A stretch of DNA of 17,159 nt from Elusimicrobiota bacterium (GTDB lineage Bacteria; Elusimicrobiota; Elusimicrobia; UBA1565; UBA9628). The stretch covers positions 1-17,159 of the forward strand of contig DATNGC010000158.1 of NCBI GenBank assembly GCA_035606075.1, given 5' to 3'. The notes below the pieces were generated by a model. That model saw nothing but the letters and a program-made list of their open reading frames with translations. It ran no database searches and was not told the DNA's origin. Of this stretch, positions 1 through 15,849 are shown piece after piece. The first letter of the stretch is position 1; every line of letters starts with the position of its first letter. The translations under genes and the position numbers were made by a program.

Positions 1-317
1 AAGTTCGGCATCGGCGGCGACGGCGCGGCCAAGGGCGCCGGCGAGAGCGGAGCGAGCGGGGCGGGAGTCTCGGCGACGGGCGCCGGCGGCGCGGCCCGCG
101 TCAGCCAGGCGTCGAGCTTCTCGCGAGCGGCCGGCTTCAGGCGGTGCAGAACGAGGCTGAGGTTGAAGCCCTCCGCCTGCGCGGGCGAGGGGCGGCCCAT
201 CAGGGCGCCGAATTTTTTCAGAAGCGCGGCGACGTCGGAGGGCCCGCCTTGGAGCAGGAGAACGTGACGGTCGGGATCGTCGGCGCTGGGCGTCGGCCGG
301 ATCTCCCACTTCTCCAT
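1..317 (-). CDS. hypothetical protein, N-terminal fragment (continues beyond window start)
   Basis: The minus-strand frame has strongly G/C-ending codons and translates MEKWEIRPTPSADDPDRHVLLLQGGPSDVAALLKKFGALMGRPSPAQAEGF... The ATG at 317..315 overlaps the TGA of the upstream gene (TGATG). It is absent from the ORF track because it runs off the window edge. Confidence 0.45.
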   Translation of the reverse strand, partial: MEKWEIRPTPSADDPDRHVLLLQGGPSDVAALLKKFGALMGRPSPAQAEGFNLSLVLHRLKPAAREKLDAWLTRAAPPAPVAETPAPLAPLSPAPLAAPSPPMPN

Positions 318-2337: not shown

Positions 2338-2366
2338 ATTGTAAGCCGATTACCGCCGGGCGTCAA
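2338..2366 (-). promoter_or_regulatory. sigma70-like promoter for pilT (TTGACG-17nt-TACAAT)
   Basis: On the minus strand the sequence reads ttgacg cccggcggtaatcggct tacaat, with an exact 17-nt spacer. It lies ~80 nt upstream of the pilT ATG in an AT-richer stretch. A 7-bp stem hairpin (cagtccg/cggactg, 2299-2319) sits in the 5' UTR. Confidence 0.45.
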
Positions 2367-2839: not shown

Positions 2840-3148
2840 TTACTCGAACTCCTCGTCGGTCAGGCCGCGGTCCTCGGCGCCCGTCTCCAGGACCGCGTTG
2901 CAGCGCGTGCAGCGCCGCGGGGTGCTGTACGTCCGCACGCAGGCGTCGTCCTCGGGCCACCACTCCTCGAAGAACATCTCGACCTTCTTGTGGCACTTGA
3001 GGCAGAACTTCTCCAGCCCCGCGCCGCAGCCCGCGCAGAACTTCGGCAGCGGCTGCCCCTCGTGGGTGTGCATGATCGCGGCGCACGCCCCGCACTGCAG
3101 GTCGATGGTGATCTTGTACTTCGCCGGCTGCTTGTCGTCTTTGGCCAT
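2840..3148 (-). CDS. small Cys-rich protein with four CxxC motifs (putative double zinc ribbon) and an acidic C-terminal tail; unknown function
   Basis: This 102-aa ORF has CxxC pairs at C19/22, C38/41, C49/52 and C80/83. The third positions are G/C-rich. It is tightly packed between deoC and BMC-H, and an SD sequence (agaggga) is present. Confidence 0.6.
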
Positions 3149-4455: not shown

Positions 4456-4671
4456 TCAGCCGGCGAGAGCGACCTCGAACGGCTTTTTCTTCAAATTGCT
4501 GATCTTCAGAACCGAAAACCCGAGCACACGGCCCTCCGCATCGACTTTTTGCATGACTTGCTCATGTTTTGTCTCGCGAAAATAACCGGGTGTCTTGGAA
4601 TCGAACAGGACTTCGAGAAAATCTCCTTCAGGATCGAACCACACCTTCATCCTCGCTTTCACTTTGGCCAT
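4456..4671 (-). CDS. DUF2283-like small protein (putative antitoxin partner)
   Basis: This 71-aa protein is MAKVKARMKVWFDPEGDFLEVLFDSKTPGYFRETKH...GRVLGFSVL, the DUF2283 pattern (MK..YD.E.D.LYI). The real start is the ATG at 4671; the longer 152-aa track ORF has a junk N-terminus. It overlaps the upstream gene by 13 nt. Confidence 0.55.
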   Translation of the reverse strand: MAKVKARMKVWFDPEGDFLEVLFDSKTPGYFRETKHEQVMQKVDAEGRVLGFSVLKISNLKKKPFEVALAG

Positions 4672-4979
4672 AATCTCGGACCTCGTTTGATCGTGTCGGT
4701 GTAATACGCCGTCAAGACGAACGCATCGTGCGAGCGAATCTTGACCACGACGCAAAGATATTTGTCGCCGACGGGACTTCCAAAGATATAACGATAGTAT
4801 AGCCGCGCCTCGCCATCGGCGCGAGACTGAACGACCTGCTCGGGATGAAGAAGAATTCGACCGATGTCGGAAAGGCTTCGGTACATTTCTGGGTGTTCTT
4901 GGATATGATCCCACCTTTCATCGGTCAGCCGAATGCTTCGCCCTTCGTAGTCGTGAAAGACTTTCAAGGCGCCGCCCAC
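4659..4979 (-). CDS. DUF4258-like small protein (putative toxin partner of the downstream DUF2283-like gene)
   Basis: This ORF of ~100 aa is MGGALKVFHDYEGRSIRLTDERWDHIQEHPEM...KYLCVVVKIRSHDAFVLTAYYTD. It has a GTG start at 4979 or a TTG at 4967. Its size, its 13-nt overlap with the DUF2283-like gene and its low GC fit a TA module. Family assignment is from memory. Confidence 0.45.
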   Translation of the reverse strand: MGGALKVFHDYEGRSIRLTDERWDHIQEHPEMYRSLSDIGRILLHPEQVVQSRADGEARLYYRYIFGSPVGDKYLCVVVKIRSHDAFVLTAYYTDTIKRGPRLWPK

Positions 4980-5323
4980 GTTGCCTTCATTCCAGATGGA
5001 ATCACCAGCGTCCAGGCAATACGGGGTTCCAGTAGCCCCGTCACGTCACTTCTCGGGATAATATATAGGCATGGCGTCGTTTCGATGTCCTCAACCAGAT
5101 AAACGAAGTAGTCCATATGCTTCTGAATCGCTCTGAAGTGATGCATCTCCATCAATCGCCAGCCGGCGCTCTTCTTTCCGACCCCTTTTACTTCAATCTT
5201 CCGACCAATGGACTCAACATCGTATCCCTGCCCTTGTTTAATTGCGCGCGCGGTGCGACCTTGTTTCCTCTCGTATTCGATCACGAATTCAACGGCCTTT
5301 GTCTCTATCTCTTTGTTGGTCAT
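4964..5323 (-). CDS. small PD-(D/E)xK nuclease-fold protein (DUF3883 / Mrr-cat-like)
   Basis: This 119-aa protein reads ...AVEFVIEYERKQG...GYDVESIGRKIEVKG..., which gives an E...D...E-x-K arrangement typical of restriction-endonuclease-like folds. The gene is low GC. Confidence 0.45.
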   Translation of the reverse strand: MTNKEIETKAVEFVIEYERKQGRTARAIKQGQGYDVESIGRKIEVKGVGKKSAGWRLMEMHHFRAIQKHMDYFVYLVEDIETTPCLYIIPRSDVTGLLEPRIAWTLVIPSGMKATWAAP

Positions 5324-5365
5324 GCAATCCGTCCTGTCATGGCTGAATCTAGAGATATTACGCGG

Positions 5366-6046
5366 CTATTCGTCCCGCAGTTTGCTTTCGAATGCTGCCT
5401 TGTCTTTCTGTTCGGATAGGCTCGTCCTTTTCTCATCATCCTTTTCTTTTGACCAGCGAACCGCCATCAAATCCTTATCTATAAAAATGACGCCGCGTTC
5501 CCAGTATGTCTTCTCATTGCGAGGTATTTTCTGCTCATACAGCATCATTTCCCGATTGCCATCCCGCCAAAATGCCGCCTGACTGCATTTCGGCGTAACA
5601 GGGTTTCCTTCATATCGATTTGAAAAGGAGCTTACCAGCATCCAGCAATAAACAAGCGGGTCCGCGTGAGCGGCATTGTTGGGGCCATATTTTTCAGACT
5701 TAAACTTCAACAATCCGCTGAATCCGTACTGTCCGGCCTTGTGGCCATACCGTCCCAGCATCTTGTCAATTCGATGGTTGATGACAGTGTAATACACGTC
5801 GACATATGGCTCTGGTATTACGTCGCCCTGCGAGGACAAAAGCGTGTAAATCGAGGCTATGCCATCGGCGTCTTCCTTTGACGTCGGCATACCGACTTCA
5901 TACTTGCCGATGCCCATTCTTAATTTCCTATTAGGCACATCCACGGCATAAGCAACGAGTTGCCCGAAAGTTAACAGAAAAATCAGTTTGGCATATCGCT
6001 TCCCTGTCTGCCCGCGGTTAATCGAACTCATTCCCAAGGAAATCAT
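5366..6046 (-). CDS. secreted hypothetical protein with an N-terminal signal peptide
   Basis: This 226-aa ORF begins MISLGMSSINRGQTGKRYAKLIFLLTFGQLVAYA|VD, a signal-peptidase-I-type leader. The gene is low GC. Its ATG overlaps the TGA of BMC-P copy 2 (ATGA). No family was recognised. Confidence 0.45.
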   Translation of the reverse strand: MISLGMSSINRGQTGKRYAKLIFLLTFGQLVAYAVDVPNRKLRMGIGKYEVGMPTSKEDADGIASIYTLLSSQGDVIPEPYVDVYYTVINHRIDKMLGRYGHKAGQYGFSGLLKFKSEKYGPNNAAHADPLVYCWMLVSSFSNRYEGNPVTPKCSQAAFWRDGNREMMLYEQKIPRNEKTYWERGVIFIDKDLMAVRWSKEKDDEKRTSLSEQKDKAAFESKLRDE

Positions 6047-10434: not shown

Positions 10435-10446
10435 GTTCTCTCCTTG

Positions 10447-10507
10447 GGGTCAGGCTTTGACTTTTTGACTTATTCGGTGAATAAGTCAAAAAGTCAAAGC
10501 CTGACCC
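10447..10507. repeat. 61-bp perfect palindrome (29-bp arms, 3-nt centre), AT-rich, between pduL and BMC-H
   Basis: The sequence is gggtcaggctttgactttttgacttattc-ggt-gaataagtcaaaaagtcaaagcctgaccc. The arms pair perfectly, and each contains two TTGAC(T) units. It ends 8 nt before the SD of the BMC-H gene, and no U-tract follows on the transcribed strand. Confidence 0.8.
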
Positions 10508-10511
10508 TTCT

Positions 10512-11147
10512 TTAAGCTATGTGCACGAAATCGCCGGTTTTGATGCCGGCGGAGTTGGCCTCGTCGGTGTCGACGTGGAACTCCAGGCTGTACTTGTCCG
10601 AAACGCGGACGATGCAGTCTTCGAAAACGGTGGAGCGTCCGCCGCCGGTGCCGCAGCGCACGCGCACGAGCTCGCCGCTGGTCATCCCCCACTTCTTCGC
10701 CTCGTCGGGCGAGAAATGGACGTGGCGCTGGGCGATGATGACGCCCTCTTTGATCTCGACTTTGCCGGCCGGGCCGATCAGGATCGCGCCGGCGGACCCC
10801 TTCACGTCGCCGGATTCCCGCACGGGGGGCTTCAATCCGATGGATATAGCGTCGGTCACCGCGAGCTCGATCTGGGTATTGGCGCGATACGGAGCCACCA
10901 GGCGGACCTTCTTCACCACTCCCTTGGGCCCCTGCACGTCGATGAGTTCCTCGGCGGCGTAGAAGCCGGGCTGTTTGATGTCTTTGACTTTCTTGGGGGA
11001 AGCCGCGGCGCCGAACAAAATCTTGAAGTGAGCCTCGGTCAAGTGACAATGTTTATTGGACACGCCGACGGGGATGTCGAGCTTGGAGCGCTGGAGGCGC
11101 TTCTCGATCTCGGAGGCCAGCCCGGCGATCTGCGTCGGGGAGATCAC
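10512..11147 (-). CDS. pduL: phosphate acyltransferase PduL (two PF06130-type repeats) with N-terminal encapsulation-peptide-like helix
   Basis: The protein has ...VGVSNKHCHL...QPGFYA...TDA..IG..P.R.SGD..GS.G..L.GP.G...AQRHVHFSPDEA...DTDEANSAGI. The likely start is GTG 11147, giving MISPTQIAGLASEIEKRLQRS, and it overlaps the tpiA stop (GTGA). The 596-aa track ORF is mostly wrong-frame junk upstream of this. Confidence 0.85.
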   Translation of the reverse strand: MISPTQIAGLASEIEKRLQRSKLDIPVGVSNKHCHLTEAHFKILFGAAASPKKVKDIKQPGFYAAEELIDVQGPKGVVKKVRLVAPYRANTQIELAVTDAISIGLKPPVRESGDVKGSAGAILIGPAGKVEIKEGVIIAQRHVHFSPDEAKKWGMTSGELVRVRCGTGGGRSTVFEDCIVRVSDKYSLEFHVDTDEANSAGIKTGDFVHIA

Positions 11148-11911
11148 GCGGGCTTGAACCCCATGATGCGCAGGAATGCGTCCTTCTTGAGGCTCGCGCC
11201 GCCGACCAGCGCGCCGTCCACGTCGGGCTGCGCCATCAGCGAGTCCACGTTTTCGGCCGTGACCGAGCCGCCGTAGAGGATCCGGATGCCGGACGCGAAA
11301 TTCTTGCCGTGCAGCCGCTCGAGCTGCTGGCGCGTGAACAGGTGCGCCTCCTGCGCCTGGGCCGGCGTGGCCGTCTTGCCCGTGCCGATCGCCCAGACCG
11401 GCTCGTAGGCGATGACGACCTTGGAGAGGTCGGCGGGCGCGAAGCCCTTGAGCCCGTTTGCGATCTGCGTCTCCAGCACGCGCCACGTCTTCTGCGTCTC
11501 GCGCTCGTCGAGCGTCTCGCCGATGCAGACGACGGGCGTCAGGCCCGCCTTGAGCGCCGCGCCCAGCTTCTTGTTGACGTTCTCGTCGGTGTCCCCGAAG
11601 AGCTTGCGCCGCTCCGAGTGGCCGATCAAAGTCATCGCGCAGCCGGCGTCGAGCAGCATGTTGGCCGAGATCTCGCCCGTGAACGCGCCCGACGCCTCCC
11701 AGTAGACGTCCTGGGCGCCCAGCCGCACCGGGCTGCCGCGCAGGACCTCGGCGACCACGGTGATGGCGGTGAAGGGCACGAAAACGGCGACCTCGCCGGA
11801 GGCGCCGGCGGCGCCGTCCTTGACCGCCCGGGCCAGCTCGACGGACTGGGCGAGCGTCAGGTTCATCTTCCAATTTCCGGCCAACAGGGGGCGGCGCAGA
11901 GGGGAGCTCAT
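11144..11911 (-). CDS. tpiA: triosephosphate isomerase
   Basis: The protein has ...RRPLLAGNWKMN...IGHSERR...VVCIGE...YEPVWAIGTGKTA...ILYGGSV. The ATG at 11911 gives MSSPLRRPLLAGNWKMN. The track ORF extends to GTG 11947, so the start is ambiguous within 11911-11947. Confidence 0.9.
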   Translation of the reverse strand: MSSPLRRPLLAGNWKMNLTLAQSVELARAVKDGAAGASGEVAVFVPFTAITVVAEVLRGSPVRLGAQDVYWEASGAFTGEISANMLLDAGCAMTLIGHSERRKLFGDTDENVNKKLGAALKAGLTPVVCIGETLDERETQKTWRVLETQIANGLKGFAPADLSKVVIAYEPVWAIGTGKTATPAQAQEAHLFTRQQLERLHGKNFASGIRILYGGSVTAENVDSLMAQPDVDGALVGGASLKKDAFLRIMGFKPA

Positions 11912-11929: not shown

Positions 11930-11948
11930 TGTGGACATATTGTCCACA
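11930..11948. promoter_or_regulatory. perfect 8-3-8 inverted repeat TGTGGACA-TAT-TGTCCACA (candidate operator) between the promoter and the tpiA RBS
   Basis: This exact palindrome lies ~20-40 nt downstream of the predicted transcription start and ~20 nt upstream of the tpiA ATG at 11911. A near-identical copy occurs at 14901..14919. Confidence 0.55.
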
Positions 11949-11976
11949 CCGTCTTTCCAGGGACGTTCCAGGCCGT

Positions 11977-12005
11977 ATTCTACTCCGAAGACGCGCCCAA
12001 GTCAA
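11977..12005 (-). promoter_or_regulatory. sigma70-like promoter for the tpiA-BMC operon (TTGACT-17nt-TAGAAT)
   Basis: The minus strand reads ttgact tgggcgcgtcttcggag tagaat, with an exact 17-nt spacer. It sits in the only sizeable intergenic gap (11912-12064) upstream of tpiA. Confidence 0.5.
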
Positions 12006-12064: not shown

Positions 12065-12661
12065 CTAAAAGTCCGAGAAGGGGACGACGACCTCGCCCAG
12101 CTGGCCGGGGTTGTATTCCCCTCCCAGCACGGACTTGCGGGGGCGCTTGACGCGCACCGCGTAGACGCCGGCCTTGCGCGCCTGCAGCAGCTCCCGGTCG
12201 GTCGAGCCGACGAACAGGACGTAGCGGCCGTCCTGCAGGTGGAGGTGGAGCTCCTCGGGGTCGGAGACGAACGTGAACCCGCGCGGCGCCAGGTGGCGCC
12301 ACTCCTTCTTCAGCGCCTCGCCGCCGGTCGCCTGCCGCTCCGCGAGGATCAGGATGTGGAAGCCGAACAGTCGGGCGACGCCCGCCGCGGCGTAGGGCAG
12401 GAGCTTGGGGCTCTCGAGATCGTAGGAGGTGTTGATCGTCTTCCAGTAATCGGGGCCGTGCGCCTGCGCGGAGGCCGCTCCCTGCGCCTTCTCGTAGGCG
12501 GCCGAGGAGTTCACGAGCGCGTCGTCGTAGGCGAAGGCGACGCCCAGGCGCGCGATCGTCACGAGGCTGAAGATCAGCCCCCAGACGCTCATCAGCGCGA
12601 GGATCTTCTTCGTCGTGGTCCAGGCCTTCTCGACTTTCTCGCGCGCATCCTTCAGAACCAT
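12065..12661 (-). CDS. membrane-anchored class B acid phosphatase-like protein (AphA / HAD subfamily IIIB-like), possibly catalytically degenerate
   Basis: This 198-aa protein has an N-terminal TM helix (ILALMSVWGLIFSLVTIARLGVAF). The C-terminal half aligns by eye with AphA: YVLFVGSTDRELLQARKAGVYAVRVKRPRKS...GEVVVPFSDF matches [30 protein letters not shown]...GEEVIVNSEY. The motif I position reads AYDDA instead of DIDDT. Its ATG lies 1 nt after the 5'-nucleotidase stop. Confidence 0.5.
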   Translation of the reverse strand: MVLKDAREKVEKAWTTTKKILALMSVWGLIFSLVTIARLGVAFAYDDALVNSSAAYEKAQGAASAQAHGPDYWKTINTSYDLESPKLLPYAAAGVARLFGFHILILAERQATGGEALKKEWRHLAPRGFTFVSDPEELHLHLQDGRYVLFVGSTDRELLQARKAGVYAVRVKRPRKSVLGGEYNPGQLGEVVVPFSDF

Positions 12662-12662
12662 G

Positions 12663-14183
12663 TCATTCCCCCAAGGAGATCAAGCGCCCGGCCGGAGGCG
12701 GGGCGATCGTCTTCTGCTTCTCGGCGCACGCGCGCAGGGCGTCGCGCGCGAGCAGTCCGGTGTCCCGCGGCGAGGCCGACGAAAACTCCTCGTAGCTGCC
12801 CGCCAGGAAATCGAGCGTCGCGACCGAGTACGTCTTAGCGTCGTCGAGCGGCGCCCCGCCGACCGTGACCCTGCCGAGGCGCGAGCCGCGCGGCTTGAGC
12901 GGGGATATCTCGGCCGTCATGCCGCCGATCTGCGCGATCTTCGGCGAGCCGACGACGTGGTCGAGGGCGGCGCGCAGCTTGGCCCCGCTCATGCGCAGGG
13001 TGACCACGGTGTCGTCGAAAGGCATGGCCTCGAACAAGCGGCGCAGGGTGACGGGCCCCGCCGGGATGTCCGCGCGGATGCCGCCGCCGTTCATGATGAA
13101 CGCGTCCGCGTCCTCCGTCGCCTTGAAGCAATCCGCCATCCAAGAGCCCAGGCCGGACTCGCCGGCGCCGGCGCGGTCGAGGTCCCGCGTCGCGGTCGCG
13201 ACGACGAGCCTGAACGCCTCGCCGAGGTCCTTCTCGCGCCGGTCGACGATCGCCTTCATCGCGGGGTCCTGTCCGAGGCGGTCGACCCACAGGTCGAGAA
13301 GCTCGTCGGAGGACGCCGTCACGCGCCTCGTCGCGGGATCGATCTTGAGGGTCGCCCGGCCGACCTTGAAGAAGTAGGACCCGGCCTGGACGATCAAGGT
13401 CCCGTGGGCCGGATCGCGCCACGCGCGGGACAAGGTCGTGTGGGTGTGGCCGCCGACGATCAGGTCGATGCCTTCCACCTCGCGCGCGAGCGTCTGGTCG
13501 CCCTCGAAGGGCGGCTTGTCCGGCGCCTCGAAGCCGACGTGCGTGACCGCGATGATCACGTCGGCGCCCTCCTTCCTCAGCGCCGCGACCTGGTCGCGGG
13601 CCTCGTCGGTCTCGCGGCGGAAGGTCAGGCCCGCGATCTTGCCGGGGACCTCGAGCCGGTCCATGTGCGACGTGATCAGGCCGAAGATCCCGAACTTGAC
13701 CCCGGAGACCTCCTTGACGATCCTCTGTCTCGTCCAGGAGACGTGCTTGCCGGACGAATCGTAGATATTGGCGGCGAGGACCGGCATCGCCATCTTCGCG
13801 TTGAGCGCGGCCGCCGAGGACCAGCCCGCGTCGAACTCGTGGTTGCCCATCTCGACGGCGTCGTAGCCCATCGCGTTGAACGCCTCGGCGACGGCCTCGC
13901 CGTGCGTCGTCGAGCCCTCGGGCGTGCCCTGCCACCAGTCGCCCGCGTCGAGGACGAGGCGGGGATTGGAGTCCCTGTTCAGCAGCGACTTCATCGCCGC
14001 CGCGCCGCCGATCGGACGGCCGTTGCGCTTGTCGGTCTGCGGCATGATCCAGCCGTGCACGTCGTTGGTGTGGTAGACCCGCACGACGATCGGCGCGGGC
14101 ACGGCGGCGGCGCCTTGGTCCTGCGCCCGGACGAACGGACAGGCGAGGGCCAGCGCGAGGGCCGGCAGGCCGAGCCGTCTCAC
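12663..14183 (-). CDS. secreted bifunctional metallophosphatase / 5'-nucleotidase (UshA family)
   Basis: This 506-aa protein has a signal peptide MRRLGLPALALALACPFVRAQDQ, metallophosphoesterase motifs (YHTNDVHG, GNHEFD, GGHTH) and a 5'-nucleotidase C-terminal domain. It has a GTG start that overlaps the upstream stop (GTGA). Confidence 0.8.
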   Translation of the reverse strand: MRRLGLPALALALACPFVRAQDQGAAAVPAPIVVRVYHTNDVHGWIMPQTDKRNGRPIGGAAAMKSLLNRDSNPRLVLDAGDWWQGTPEGSTTHGEAVAEAFNAMGYDAVEMGNHEFDAGWSSAAALNAKMAMPVLAANIYDSSGKHVSWTRQRIVKEVSGVKFGIFGLITSHMDRLEVPGKIAGLTFRRETDEARDQVAALRKEGADVIIAVTHVGFEAPDKPPFEGDQTLAREVEGIDLIVGGHTHTTLSRAWRDPAHGTLIVQAGSYFFKVGRATLKIDPATRRVTASSDELLDLWVDRLGQDPAMKAIVDRREKDLGEAFRLVVATATRDLDRAGAGESGLGSWMADCFKATEDADAFIMNGGGIRADIPAGPVTLRRLFEAMPFDDTVVTLRMSGAKLRAALDHVVGSPKIAQIGGMTAEISPLKPRGSRLGRVTVGGAPLDDAKTYSVATLDFLAGSYEEFSSASPRDTGLLARDALRACAEKQKTIAPPPAGRLISLGE

Positions 14184-14749
14184 TCGGCGAGGCTCCCCGC
14201 CAGCGCGTCGCAGGCCTGCTGCAGGCCCTCGGCGGCCGAGGACAGCCGCGAGGCGACCTCGCTGCGCTTGACCGCCACGACGAAGAACGGCGACTCGCGG
14301 GCCGCGTCCAGCGCTGCGCGGCGGCGGCGCTCGACGTCAGCGGCCCAGCGCTTGGCGTCGTCGAGGGCGTTCGCGCGCGCCGAGCCGGCGACGGCGAGGG
14401 CGCGGGCCAGGGACTTCGCGCCGGAGCGCAGGCCGTCGGCCATCGCGGCGAACTCGGGATCGGCGCCGAGCCCCCACTGCGTGGCGTCGGACACCGCTCC
14501 GACGGCGTGCTCGACGGCCTCGCGCAGGGCGAACGAGTAGTCCGCCGCGCCGGCCGCGGCGGCTCCGGCGCGTCCGCGCAGGCCCGCGACCGCGCGCTCG
14601 CGCGCGCCGCGCGAGCGCAGGCGCGCCGTCCGCGCGGCCGACAGCGCGGCGGGCTCGGGCCGGCGGAACCAGCGCGCCGCGGCGTCGGCGGCGTCGGCCA
14701 GCAATTGCGCCTGTCCGCGCGAGGGCGCCTCCGACGATTTTCGGGCCAT
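14180..14749 (-). CDS. hypothetical Ala/Arg-rich protein (predicted all-helical)
   Basis: This 189-aa ORF has consistently G/C-ending codons and an ATG start at 14749. No recognisable motifs were found. Confidence 0.4.
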   Translation of the reverse strand: MARKSSEAPSRGQAQLLADAADAAARWFRRPEPAALSAARTARLRSRGARERAVAGLRGRAGAAAAGAADYSFALREAVEHAVGAVSDATQWGLGADPEFAAMADGLRSGAKSLARALAVAGSARANALDDAKRWAADVERRRRAALDAARESPFFVVAVKRSEVASRLSSAAEGLQQACDALAGSLAE

Positions 14750-14780: not shown

Positions 14781-15506
14781 TCAGCGGCGGAACGGGCCTC
14801 GGGCCGCCGGCGCCGCTCCGAGCAGCCGCTCGGCGTCGCGGAAGGCGTCGCGGTGCGAGAGCACGAGGTAGGCAGGCTTGCCGCGCGCGGCGTCCTTGAT
14901 CGTAGACAAATTGTCCACAGACAGCGCCCCCACCCGCGGCCCCTGCGGGCGCAGGTAGCGGAACGCGCCGCGCTCGGGCACGGCCTCCTTCAGCGGGTCG
15001 ACGGCGCGGATCAGGCCCAGCTCCCCGCACACGCGGTCGACGAGCGCCGATCCCCAGGCGACTCCGCGAGGGTGCCACACGCAGGCGAAGCGGCCCCGGG
15101 GCATCGCCTTGAAGAACCGGTACATGTCGCGCAGGCGGTCGGGGCCCGGCTGGAAGGAAGCCGGGGTCTCGAAGACCACCACCTTGGCGCCCAAGGCCTC
15201 GGCAGCGGCCTTCGTGGACATCCAGGCCTCATGGACCTCCAGGCTCTCGCGGAAGCCGCCGCACTGGCGCTGGGCCGCCGGAGAGAGCTTCTTCGCCGCC
15301 GGCGGGAAGCCGCGGTCCTCGCGGCCGTGGGTGATGGCCCGCGAGGCCTGCACGGAGAACTCGGCCTCGATCGGGGCGGTCGCCCGCCATTGGGCGAGGG
15401 TGGCGGGCCGCGGCATGACCTCCCCCGTGCGCGCCTCGACGAAGGAGAACGACCGCCAATAGCGGTCTTGGCCGATGGGGAAGCCGGCGCAGCCGATCTT
15501 CAGCAT
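14781..15506 (-). CDS. DUF72 (YecE/UPF0759) family protein
   Basis: The protein is MLKIGCAGFPIGQDRYWRSFSFVEARTGE...FSVQASRAITH..., the characteristic DUF72 N-terminus. The real start is the ATG at 15506; the 280-aa track ORF has 39 junk residues upstream. Confidence 0.7.
   Translation of the reverse strand: MLKIGCAGFPIGQDRYWRSFSFVEARTGEVMPRPATLAQWRATAPIEAEFSVQASRAITHGREDRGFPPAAKKLSPAAQRQCGGFRESLEVHEAWMSTKAAAEALGAKVVVFETPASFQPGPDRLRDMYRFFKAMPRGRFACVWHPRGVAWGSALVDRVCGELGLIRAVDPLKEAVPERGAFRYLRPQGPRVGALSVDNLSTIKDAARGKPAYLVLSHRDAFRDAERLLGAAPAARGPFRR
14901..14919. promoter_or_regulatory. second copy of the TGTGGACA-N3-TGTCCACA-type inverted repeat (cgtagaca-aat-tgtccaca), inside the 3' part of the DUF72 gene
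   Basis: The right arm tgtccaca is identical to that of the tpiA operator, and the left arm matches at 6 of 8 positions. On the minus strand the two copies read TGTGGACAATATGTCCAC and TGTGGACAATTTGTCTAC. It lies ~150 nt upstream of the next gene start at 14749. Confidence 0.4.
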
Positions 15507-15513
15507 CCAGCCG

Positions 15514-15849
15514 CTAATCGAAGAGGGTGAACTCGGGCTCGCGCCGGGGCCGCGAGACGGTCTCCGGCAGGCGGCGCGCCCAGCGCAGGCAGTACCAGGC
15601 CAAGCCGAGGCAGGCCAGGCCATAGGCCAGCTCGAAGCCGGCGTAGCGCAGCCACTGGGCCTCGGTCACGAACGCCCATTTTTGGGGGGCATACAGGTTG
15701 GCCTCGGGCTCGCCTCCGCAGAGGTCCCAAACGCCCTTGAAAGCAACCAGCCCGCCCCACCCGGCGAAGATCGCCGCGGTGAGACGGGCCAGTCCGCGAA
15801 TCTTGATCGTCTCCGTCGCCGACTTCGTCGCCGACGGAGATTCCTTCAT
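15514..15849 (-). CDS. small membrane protein (two predicted TM helices)
   Basis: This 111-aa protein starts at the ATG at 15849. Its hydrophobic stretches are LARLTAAIFAGWGGLVAF and FELAYGLACLGLAWYCL. The codons are G/C3-rich, and it lies 20 nt downstream of rpsI. Confidence 0.45.
   Translation of the reverse strand: MKESPSATKSATETIKIRGLARLTAAIFAGWGGLVAFKGVWDLCGGEPEANLYAPQKWAFVTEAQWLRYAGFELAYGLACLGLAWYCLRWARRLPETVSRPRREPEFTLFD

Follow-up and report, generated by a model that had tools for sequence, protein, structure and literature searches.

Sugar-phosphate-utilising (SPU) microcompartments belong to the most widespread types of metabolosome. The enzymes of SPU BMCs include DERA/DeoC, RPI and AldDH, often accompanied by TPI and PTAC (PMC11585597). 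The SPU6 locus of Chloroflexi, which represents the same organelle type as the Elusimicrobiota loci studied here and shares this enzyme set, encodes its own GntR-family regulator, whereas none is encoded in the Elusimicrobiota loci (PMC11585597). We found no description in the publications consulted of an operator in the SPU loci of Elusimicrobiota, or of how these loci are switched on.

In their layout, the closest described regulatory systems are the lac (O1/O2), gal (OE/OI) and deo (O1/O2/OE) operators of E. coli, in which a dyad is located at or just past the transcription start site of catabolic genes, with a weaker copy in a neighbouring coding region. The auxiliary operators of these systems are placed at distances that range from a few hundred bp up to roughly 0.9 kb. 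The deo regulon also shares the theme of nucleoside and deoxyribose catabolism with the locus described below. The differences are that no regulator gene is located near the dyad described here (called O1 in the following), that the host is an uncultured member of the Elusimicrobiota, and that the auxiliary site is 2.4 to 5.3 kb away. The sequence of O1 is presumably unrelated to the operators of DeoR, CytR, LacI, and GalR.

The DNA analyzed here, which we refer to as the window, is a stretch of 17,159 nucleotides from an Elusimicrobiota bacterium in which the genes are carried on the minus strand (Table 1). Secreted nucleotidases adjoin the tpiA operon upstream, and genes for a PilT-like ATPase, ComM, and DprA are located downstream. 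The stop codon of the tpiA gene overlaps the start of the PTAC/pduL gene, and a gap of 153 nt separates tpiA from the stop codon of the upstream gene (12065), which encodes a protein of 198 amino acids with a weak match to the AphA acid phosphatase. The start codon of tpiA was taken to be the ATG at 11911, in accordance with the gene call for a protein of 255 amino acids on the identical metagenome contig L001. The GTG at 11947, given as the start in the list of open reading frames, was rejected, being located inside the dyad and at odds with the L001 call. Judged from the predicted genes, the enzyme set of the operon is that of an SPU type microcompartment, and its products would serve in the breakdown of deoxyribose and ribose phosphates. 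The neighboring genes, including the one for a DnaA-like AAA+ paralogue, suggest that the operon is part of a larger DNA-uptake and DNA-as-food island.

Table 1. Features of the tpiA locus in the window, with coordinates, strand, and the evidence for each assignment
Feature	Position	Strand	Evidence
-35 hexamer TTGACT	12000..12005	-	Promoter scan; TTGAC invariant in alignment A1, in 16/17 loci (all but L132)
-10 hexamer TAGAAT, 17 nt past the -35	11977..11982	-	Promoter scan; invariant in A1
O1, perfect dyad TGTGGACA-ATA-TGTCCACA	11930..11948	-	Repeat finder, 8-3-8 arms 100% complementary; conserved in 17 loci
tpiA, 255 aa, first gene of the operon	11144..11911	-	Pfam TIM, E = 2e-92; gene calls on identical contig L001
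O2 TGTGGACAATTTGTCTACG, in the 3' part of the DUF72 gene	14901..14919	-	2 mismatches; 0.03 matches expected in window
O3, possible third site TGAGGCCTGGATGTCCACG (gene strand), encodes EAWMST	15213..15231	-	Same place in 7 loci
Upstream gene order: rplM, rpsI, small membrane protein, DUF72, 189-aa protein, secreted 5'-nucleotidase, 198-aa protein, then the tpiA operon		-	Pfam and precomputed gene calls
tpiA operon, first part: tpiA, PTAC/pduL, BMC-H, BMC-P, aldehyde dehydrogenase, aldo-keto reductase, BMC-T, RpiB		-	Pfam and gene calls
tpiA operon, later part: BMC-P, further inserts, BMC-P, DeoC aldolase, double-zinc-ribbon protein, BMC-H		-	Pfam and gene calls
DnaA/Hda-family AAA+ protein, first 105 residues	317..1	-	83% identical to the N-terminus of P0185

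A preliminary description of this DNA had proposed that a near-consensus sigma-70 promoter, TTGACT-17-TAGAAT, is followed by a perfect operator-like dyad of 19 bp at the head of the BMC operon, within a true intergenic gap upstream of tpiA. All of these elements were recovered in our analysis, at the head of the tpiA-pduL-BMC operon. The promoter scored 10/12 and was tied for the best in a consensus scan of the window, which yielded 4 sites against 1.3 expected. O1 was confirmed as a perfect 8-3-8 palindrome, which reads TGTGGACAATATGTCCACA on the gene strand and is located 28 nt past the -10 hexamer and 18 nt before the ATG of tpiA, corresponding to roughly +22 to +40 relative to a start predicted about 7 nt past the -10 hexamer. 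A palindrome alone is weak evidence here, because the window contains 4 perfect 8-3-8 repeats, compared to 0.63 expected from shuffled sequences.

To study the conservation of these elements, orthologous loci were collected by an exact look-up of TpiA homologues, a genome pattern scan (which contributed L045 and L110), and a metagenome scan with the protein of 198 amino acids. All of the named TpiA homologues at 70% to 93% identity belonged to the Elusimicrobiota, which places the source of the window in an uncultured, high-GC lineage of this phylum; the GC content of the genomes was 63% to 70%. The arrangement of promoter plus dyad was identified upstream of tpiA in 16 further loci, giving 17 with the window, and was retained in loci with TpiA identities as low as about 71%. 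In alignment A1, the TTGAC and TAGAAT motifs and the dyad were invariant or nearly so in a gap that could otherwise not be aligned. Hexamers of the sigma-70 type (TTGACA-like and TATAAT-like, 16 to 18 nt apart) were found with the same sequences and spacing in 16 of the 17 loci, with TAGAAT or TAAAAT as the -10 hexamer in the deeper lineages and TACAAT in L045. The exception was L132, which has no -35 hexamer and has kept only a -10-like TATAAT. The distance from the -10 hexamer to the dyad was 21 to 35 nt in the 17 loci, mostly about 28 nt (27 to 29), with an unconserved sequence in between, and the dyad was separated from the ATG by 1 to 32 nt.

The dyad was absent next to homologues of the gene for the 198-aa protein that are not followed by tpiA (L129 and L131), which assigns the element to the tpiA/BMC promoter. 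It could be argued that O1 is a functionless chance palindrome beside a real promoter, given that 4 perfect 8-3-8 repeats occur in this window of 17 kb and such repeats are thus not rare there. However, O1 goes beyond chance, because the promoter and the dyad have been kept together in 16 other loci within a diverged gap and because the window contains a second copy of the site. A chance origin is also at odds with the position of the dyad at the same place in 17 lineages with diverged flanks, with the parallel change of both of its halves, and with the rare codons that hold the second copy in place (see below), and we regard it as hardly credible. The comparative evidence makes the interpretation of these elements as a promoter and an operator well supported.

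The pattern of variation within O1 was informative about what might recognize it. The lineage consensus was TGTGG(A/C)CA-WWW-TG(T/G)CCACA, and a matrix of the 34 O1 half-sites gave T G T G G [A22/C11/T1] C A W. The 3 central bases of the spacer were A or T in 98% of cases, in genomes of 63% to 70% GC. The more closely related lineages, with TpiA proteins that are 80% to 100% identical, contained TGTGGACA...TGTCCACA, and the deeper lineages L133 to L137, with TpiA identities of 71% to 78%, contained TGTGGCCA...TGGCCACA. In these 5 lineages, A6/T14 had been replaced by C6/G14 in both halves together. Because the joint A-to-C switch is confined to the deeper lineages, it was probably one evolutionary event, in one clade. 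A single genome, that of L133, carries both a C/C version of O1 and an A/C hybrid of the second site, O2, so that whatever reads the site tolerates either A or C at this position.

Across the 17 O1 sites, 94.9% of the cells were symmetric, and the only pair altered on both sides was the one that differs in 5 sequences. Changes restricted to one half were left uncompensated, and the unpaired cells that they produced contained non-pairing bases rather than G-U in 6 of 7 cases, a pattern that would be expected from independent drift of 2 protein half-sites. A symmetry that is conserved across orthologous promoters, with half-sites that evolve alike, is what a dimeric operator should display. Taken as a whole, the fixed sequence, the spacer restricted to A/T, and halves that drift singly yet shift together look like the marks of a symmetric dimeric DNA-binding protein.

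The same dyad could instead act in the mRNA, as a hairpin with an 8-bp stem and a 3-nt loop in the tpiA leader and in the DUF72 transcript, which would influence the stability or processing of the transcript or would be recognised by an RNA-binding protein. O1 is indeed located within the predicted transcribed leader and the hairpin forms in the minimum-free-energy fold, while O2 of the window would be fully paired when G-U pairs are counted. The pairing of 94.9% of the cells and the single AU-to-CG double change in 5 sequences are in agreement with a hairpin, and a coupled change of both halves is equally expected from an RNA or a DNA hairpin. However, the lone double change probably goes back to one event within a single clade, and single-sided changes gave A-C or other mismatches as often as G-U. 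The sequence of the stem itself has been kept, with 4 of the 8 pairs never varying amid randomised flanking bases, and the loop is constrained only to A/T, which is typical of a DNA spacer as opposed to a recognised RNA loop. Furthermore, no Rfam family was matched at E <= 1, and the leader fold was unexceptional (z = -1.2). The sequence downstream of the stem is A-rich rather than U-rich, and O1 is not a terminator or attenuator because no U-tract follows the stem. A search for a known RNA family, for a stem with a U-tract, and for covariation beyond that of DNA symmetry returned a single double-sided pair change, and we consider a role as an RNA hairpin unlikely.

The second copy of the dyad, O2, is located within the DUF72 gene, on the upstream side of O1 at a distance of 2971 bp; the next gene starts about 150 nt further on, with its ATG at 14749. 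It was present in all 8 fetched loci in which DUF72 is located upstream of tpiA, at O2-to-O1 distances of 2.4 to 5.3 kb, and always at the same codons, for V-D-(N/D)-(L/M)-(S/T/A)-T. Since the protein motif is itself conserved, the analysis was directed at the silent positions. The codon ACA accounts for 1.3% of the Thr codons in the loci, yet 5 of the 6 O2 sites that were tested contain it (binomial P ~2e-9, a nominal value which ignores shared ancestry). Likewise, AAT accounts for 13% of the Asn codons, yet it was used in 5 of 5 cases at O2 (nominal P ~4e-5, an overstated significance as the lineages are related). Because the rare codons ACA and AAT have been retained while adjacent silent sites have freely diverged, the codon usage indicates that O2 is under selection at the DNA level.

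No promoter-like sequence was recognisable beside O2, and the site was absent from the loci in which DUF72 is not located upstream (L134 to L137). The genes that precede the 5'-nucleotidase gene in these loci are not DUF72 genes, and they are co-directional with it in L134 and L135 and divergent in L136 and L137. Lacking a recognisable promoter, and missing wherever DUF72 is not located upstream, O2 may therefore be read as an auxiliary looping operator or as a block to read-through, both of which are conjectures. A possible third site, O3, is located 309 to 312 bp upstream of O2 (312 bp in the window), but it matches at a chance level, with 43 matches against 17.5 expected at that threshold and a protein motif that is conserved too, and O3 is unproven as an operator.

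The preliminary description had also stated that a lack of further occurrences of the dyad in the genome, together with a lack of protein binding, would speak against its proposal. This concern is answered in part by O2, a second conserved site in the window, and the genome-wide search contained, for the Elusimicrobiota among the matches listed, only the tpiA sites. When 185,579 species genomes were scanned for exact occurrences of TGTGGACANNNTGTCCACA, at least 120 matches were obtained, against about 140 chance matches estimated over the whole collection. The only Elusimicrobiota among the matches listed were L045 and L110, and in both of them the match was the tpiA site. Most of the other matches listed represented conserved extended palindromes in Clostridia, the coding motif VDIVSTS(M/V)H, or a five-copy element in L109. 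When the genes flanking the 127 sites in these loci were clustered, no recurrent regulator family was found beside the matches listed; there were single cases such as azoR/tetR.

In the azoR/tetR case, Actinomadura (L083) has the identical 19-mer as an apparent operator in the region from which azoR and tetR diverge. The TGTGGACA-N3-TGTCCACA core is present in this divergent promoter in 2 actinomycetes, Actinomadura (L083) and Nocardia (L010), and the TetR_N gene was confirmed in L083. These apparent operators differ from O1 in being associated with another phylum and other genes, and in that the palindrome extends further (ACGA...TCGT); no TetR gene is located near the Elusimicrobiota locus. 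Unrelated proteins evidently use this dyad, as far as its gene neighborhoods reveal, and the dyad alone can therefore not name its regulator.

According to the preliminary description, the dyad does not match the sites of DeoR, CytR, Rex, CRP/FNR, or LexA. The dyad does match one known type of site, since the plus strand of the window reads TGTGGACAT-A-TTGTCCACA, which corresponds to a perfect TTGTCCACA and an inverted ATGTCCACA placed 1 bp apart, in other words to 2 inverted DnaA boxes; the comparative data nevertheless disfavour canonical DnaA. The E. coli consensus for the DnaA box has a fixed T at position 4 and a fixed C at position 6 and allows variation at positions 3 and 5. DnaA-box complexes are able to block RNA polymerase, and the nrd genes are controlled by DnaA in several bacteria. 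O1 could thus be bound by canonical DnaA acting as a transcription factor or roadblock, which would tie the catabolism of deoxyribose and nucleotides to the replication cycle. The halves of O1 in the window and in close relatives are a perfect and a one-mismatch version of the high-GC DnaA box, in inverted orientation (compare TTATCCACA and TTGTCCACA), and the absence of a local regulator gene is what would be expected for a global factor.

In M. tuberculosis and S. coelicolor, the 9-mer TTGTCCACA serves as the DnaA box of high affinity (PMC4285127 Table 1). The same table shows that the T at position 4 is identical in 8 of 8 tabulated 9-mer boxes, the 12-mer of T. maritima aside, and that positions 3 and 5 differ among the boxes of different species (PMC4285127 Table 1). 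A test of the 34 O1 half-sites against the DnaA 9-mers (TTWTNCACA / TTGTCCACA) identified 7 copies of TTGTCCACA, 10 of ATGTCCACA, and 8 of TTGGCCACA, with agreement in the A-type lineages and disagreement in the C-type lineages. Moreover, the conservation of positions is reversed in O1. Position 4 varies (T22/G11/A1), with G in both halves of O1 in L133 to L137 (TTGGCCACA), whereas positions 3 and 5, which are variable among DnaA boxes, are invariant in the 34 half-sites. The strict 8-3-8 symmetry and spacing in all lineages also argue against DnaA, as does the absence of additional DnaA boxes, and thus of a cluster, around O1.

We also considered a DARS-like site for the reactivation of DnaA. 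The head-to-head DnaA boxes I and II of the E. coli DARS are 5 bp apart, compared to 1 bp in O1, and require a third box (PMC6868365), and this candidate was rejected. Matches of the exact 19-mer near dnaA genes provide some support for binding by DnaA: in 2 gammaproteobacterial genomes the sequence adjoins a canonical dnaA, which it precedes by 29 nt in L096 and follows by 50 nt in L122, and it also occurs among further DnaA boxes in L064/L067, L023, L118, and L075. However, the idea that the TGTGGACANNNTGTCCACA matches mostly represent oriC regions was rejected, since L096 and L122 alone adjoin dnaA among the matches listed and a handful have neighboring boxes. Overall, we think it improbable that canonical DnaA binds O1.

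A related candidate is encoded at the end of the locus. According to the preliminary description, the window contains no transcription-factor gene, and we found no helix-turn-helix (HTH) gene in it, but the left edge encodes the N-terminus of a DnaA/Hda-family AAA+ protein for which no DNA-binding domain was recognised. A DnaA/Hda-like gene closes the locus wherever the 3' end was fetched (L133 to L139), usually after genes for a PilT-like ATPase and a Pro/Ala-rich protein; in L137 the assignment was made by position and size only, the cut gene having no Pfam match. All of the named members of this protein family belong to the Elusimicrobiota, and many of them are most likely located on the same contigs as TpiA. 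It might therefore be suggested that this protein, alone or with a partner such as the double-zinc-ribbon protein, is a dedicated regulator of the dyad, a proposal in keeping with the presence of the paralogue in every lineage with a fetched 3' end, with the 83% identity of the window fragment to the N-terminus of P0185, with the restriction of the named family members to this phylum and their probable linkage to tpiA, and with the resemblance of the operator to DnaA boxes.

The domain structure of the DnaA/Hda-like protein speaks against such a role. Only its AAA+ domain III is DnaA-like, with a score of 125 bits to TIGR00362, against a cut-off of 344, over model positions 90 to 300. Neither DnaA_N (PF11638) nor the helix-turn-helix of Bac_DnaA_C (PF08299) was detected by Pfam or NCBIfam, and the matches obtained with PDB profiles and with Foldseek on the AF2 model end before domain IV. 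The model (mean pLDDT 78) consists of a small alpha/beta N-terminal domain, a disordered linker, the AAA+ module, and a C-terminal domain of 120 residues with a four-stranded alpha/beta fold and no obvious DNA-binding motif, so that nothing points to the reading of double-stranded DNA, striking as the co-occurrence of this gene with an operator resembling DnaA boxes is. The canonical DnaA proteins of L096 and L122 have all 3 Pfam domains; the combination of DnaA_N, domain III, and Bac_DnaA_C with a score above the TIGR00362 cut-off was not found in the gene at 317..1. Furthermore, this gene may belong to a separate operon with the PilT-like ATPase, and we consider it very unlikely that it encodes the regulator. 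It is likewise doubtful that both O1 and O2 are read by replication-initiator machinery in some form, whether this is canonical DnaA or a complex with the DnaA/Hda-like AAA+ protein at its core.

No HTH transcription-factor gene was recognisable in the window or within 10 kb of the dyad in any of the related loci, and the nearest HTH that could be recognised belongs to a protein of the XRE type (HTH_31; L138, 14714-15070), located at about 13.7 kb from O1 and with no dyad nearby. Several proteins of the locus were screened as hidden regulators and discarded, namely the AphA-like (weak match) protein of 198 amino acids and the proteins of 189, 283, and 87 amino acids, which had no matches. The protein of 102 amino acids is a double zinc ribbon and is a candidate regulator. 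The half-site and spacing of O1 were also compared by eye to the motifs of Rex, CRP/FNR, LexA variants, NrdR, CggR, DosR, HexR, NagR/DasR (dre), BlaI, and TrmB (TGM), none of which appeared to match in both respects.

The interpretation that we favor, with a probability of roughly 55%, is that O1 is the target of a dedicated dimeric repressor that is encoded elsewhere and acts just downstream of the start site, assisted by an auxiliary intragenic operator; the probability beyond that of the readings presented here goes to other mechanisms. The sequences show the elements themselves, their conservation, the selection at the DNA level, and the parallel change of the half-sites; protein binding, the sign of the regulation, looping or roadblock action, and the effector are what we infer. 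In this model, the housekeeping sigma factor (sigma-70 type) would drive the tpiA-pduL-BMC operon from the promoter, and O1, in the early transcribed region, would most likely be recognised by a sequence-specific DNA-binding protein whose gene is located elsewhere. This protein would bind as a symmetric dimer, with each monomer reading TGTGG(A/C)CA across the A/T-rich spacer of 3 bp. At its position of about +22 to +40, it would most likely act as a repressor that blocks the escape of RNA polymerase from the promoter or the early phase of elongation. The roadblock position suggested in the preliminary description is upheld to this extent, in that a dyad about 28 nt past the -10 hexamer fits repression just downstream of the predicted start; the blocking itself is something we infer. 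The weaker O2 may aid the binding of the same protein through a DNA loop of 2.4 to 5.3 kb, or alternatively it may stop transcription of the rplM-rpsI-DUF72 genes from running on into the genes for the nucleotidase and the BMC. The signal would be expected to be a nucleoside or a sugar-phosphate, because the operon is predicted to degrade (deoxy)ribose phosphates and because secreted nucleotidases adjoin it.

The promoter and O1 represent a real yet fairly ordinary genetic switch, in a poorly known phylum. The lineage-wide motif TGTGGMCAWWWTGKCCACA provides a handle for finding the regulon and an autoregulated transcription factor in complete MAGs, and O1 could be used as bait for DNA-affinity capture. 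The tpiA promoter with its operator could also serve as a ready regulated promoter for the heterologous expression of these shells. If the replication-initiator machinery does read the sites, the recognised box would have drifted to TTGGCCACA in the deeper lineages, and the expression of a microcompartment that degrades extracellular DNA and deoxyribose would be tied to the state of replication or of the nucleotides in the cell. A functional basis for the likeness to DnaA boxes would thus link a catabolic organelle to the replication initiator, which would be unusual.

The operon upstream of tpiA encodes an uncharacterized protein of 189 amino acids, a 5'-nucleotidase with a signal peptide and the domains Metallophos and 5_nucleotid_C, and a membrane-anchored protein that weakly matches the AphA acid phosphatase. 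This gene content suggests that extracellular nucleotides are scavenged to supply the BMC for deoxyribose and ribose phosphates. The positions of this operon and of the other features are listed in the table below.

Features of the BMC locus and related Elusimicrobiota loci (L-numbers).
Feature	Position	Strand	Remarks
DnaA/Hda-family AAA+ paralogue	window 1-317	minus	family P0121-P0240
Full-length DnaA/Hda-like relatives	L133 18996-20591; L135 16936-18471		
Sigma-70-like site TTGACG-17-TACAAT	window 2338-2366	minus	10/12; within ORF 2262-2525
Double-zinc-ribbon protein	window 2840-3148	minus	four CxxC motifs, weak Pfam DZR match
Lineage-specific inserts	window 4456-6046; L002 14138-19306; L003 15207-17836; L005 14477-19382		
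Very long perfect palindrome	window about 10443-10500		PTAC/first BMC-H gap, just before shell gene
Operon upstream of tpiA	window 12065-14749	minus	
O2 operator-like dyad	window 14901-14919		within coding sequence of DUF72 gene 14781-15518
O3 operator-like dyad	window 15213-15231		within coding sequence of DUF72 gene 14781-15518
Region 3' of BMC locus	L138 8135-19508; L139 7722-20957		

The second operator-like dyad, O2, is held in related lineages by the rare codons ACA and AAT. The possible third dyad, O3, located 312 bp upstream of O2, is conserved, yet its match to the motif is only at chance level. The exact 19-mer that forms the dyad preceding tpiA was found again in unrelated settings among the genome-scan matches listed (L006-L125). 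The listed matches included an extended palindrome, ACTTGTGGACA-TCA-TGTCCACAAGT, which was conserved together with its flanks in more than 20 Clostridia genomes, conserved sites in three Micrarchaeota contigs (L024, L040, and L065), and a Streptomyces class of sites that adjoins a gene for a luciferase-like monooxygenase. Five copies of the 19-mer with GAGT/ACTC extensions were located inside 8 kb of a single Oscillospiraceae contig (L109).

Within the BMC operon, the palindrome in the gap that separates the PTAC gene from the first BMC-H gene has arms of about 28 nt and the core TGACTTATTC-NNN-GAATAAGTCA. The same gap was filled in L002, L134, and L136 by hairpins that differ in sequence and share a similar GTCAG...CTGAC base, and was only 11 to 31 nt in L003, L004, L005, L133, L135, and L137. 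The palindrome could act in the processing or stability of the mRNA; alternatively, it could be a small mobile repeat. Lineage-specific inserts accumulate at a hotspot in the middle of the operon. In the window, they consisted of a small DUF2283-like ORF and two genes, one with a NOV_C domain and one for an uncharacterized protein of 226 amino acids, and in other lineages of one to three caspase-like Peptidase_C14 genes; the L002 insert region also carries an MNT/HepT toxin-antitoxin pair.

In every fetched locus that covers this part, the gene for the zinc-ribbon protein (95 to 108 amino acids) was conserved between those for DeoC and the last BMC-H protein. The zinc-ribbon protein could have a redox role, be encapsulated, or bind nucleic acids. 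Between the last BMC-H and PilT-like ATPase genes lies a conserved ORF of 87 to 94 amino acids without a family match, which contains the second 10-of-12 sigma-70-like site of the window; this site is a possible promoter for the ATPase/DnaA-like gene group.

The BMC locus ended with the DnaA/Hda-family paralogue in every lineage in which the 3' end was seen, and the named members of this family were from Elusimicrobiota only. Its domain III is DnaA-like, whereas DnaA_N and domain IV are absent; in their place are a novel α/β domain at the N terminus and a four-stranded α/β domain at the C terminus, together with a Pro-rich linker. The downstream genes in L138 and L139 encode the PilT-like ATPase, a Pro/Ala-rich protein, the DnaA-like AAA+ protein, and an uncharacterized protein, beside which L139 additionally contained a GAF histidine kinase, followed by a ComM-like ATPase, a YfiO-like TPR protein, a small XRE-type HTH_31 protein, DprA, TopA, and a XerC-like recombinase. 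The HTH_31 protein represents the nearest recognizable HTH, and no dyad was found near its gene in L138 or L139. A DNA-breakdown organelle is adjoined by genes with a DNA-uptake and processing theme.
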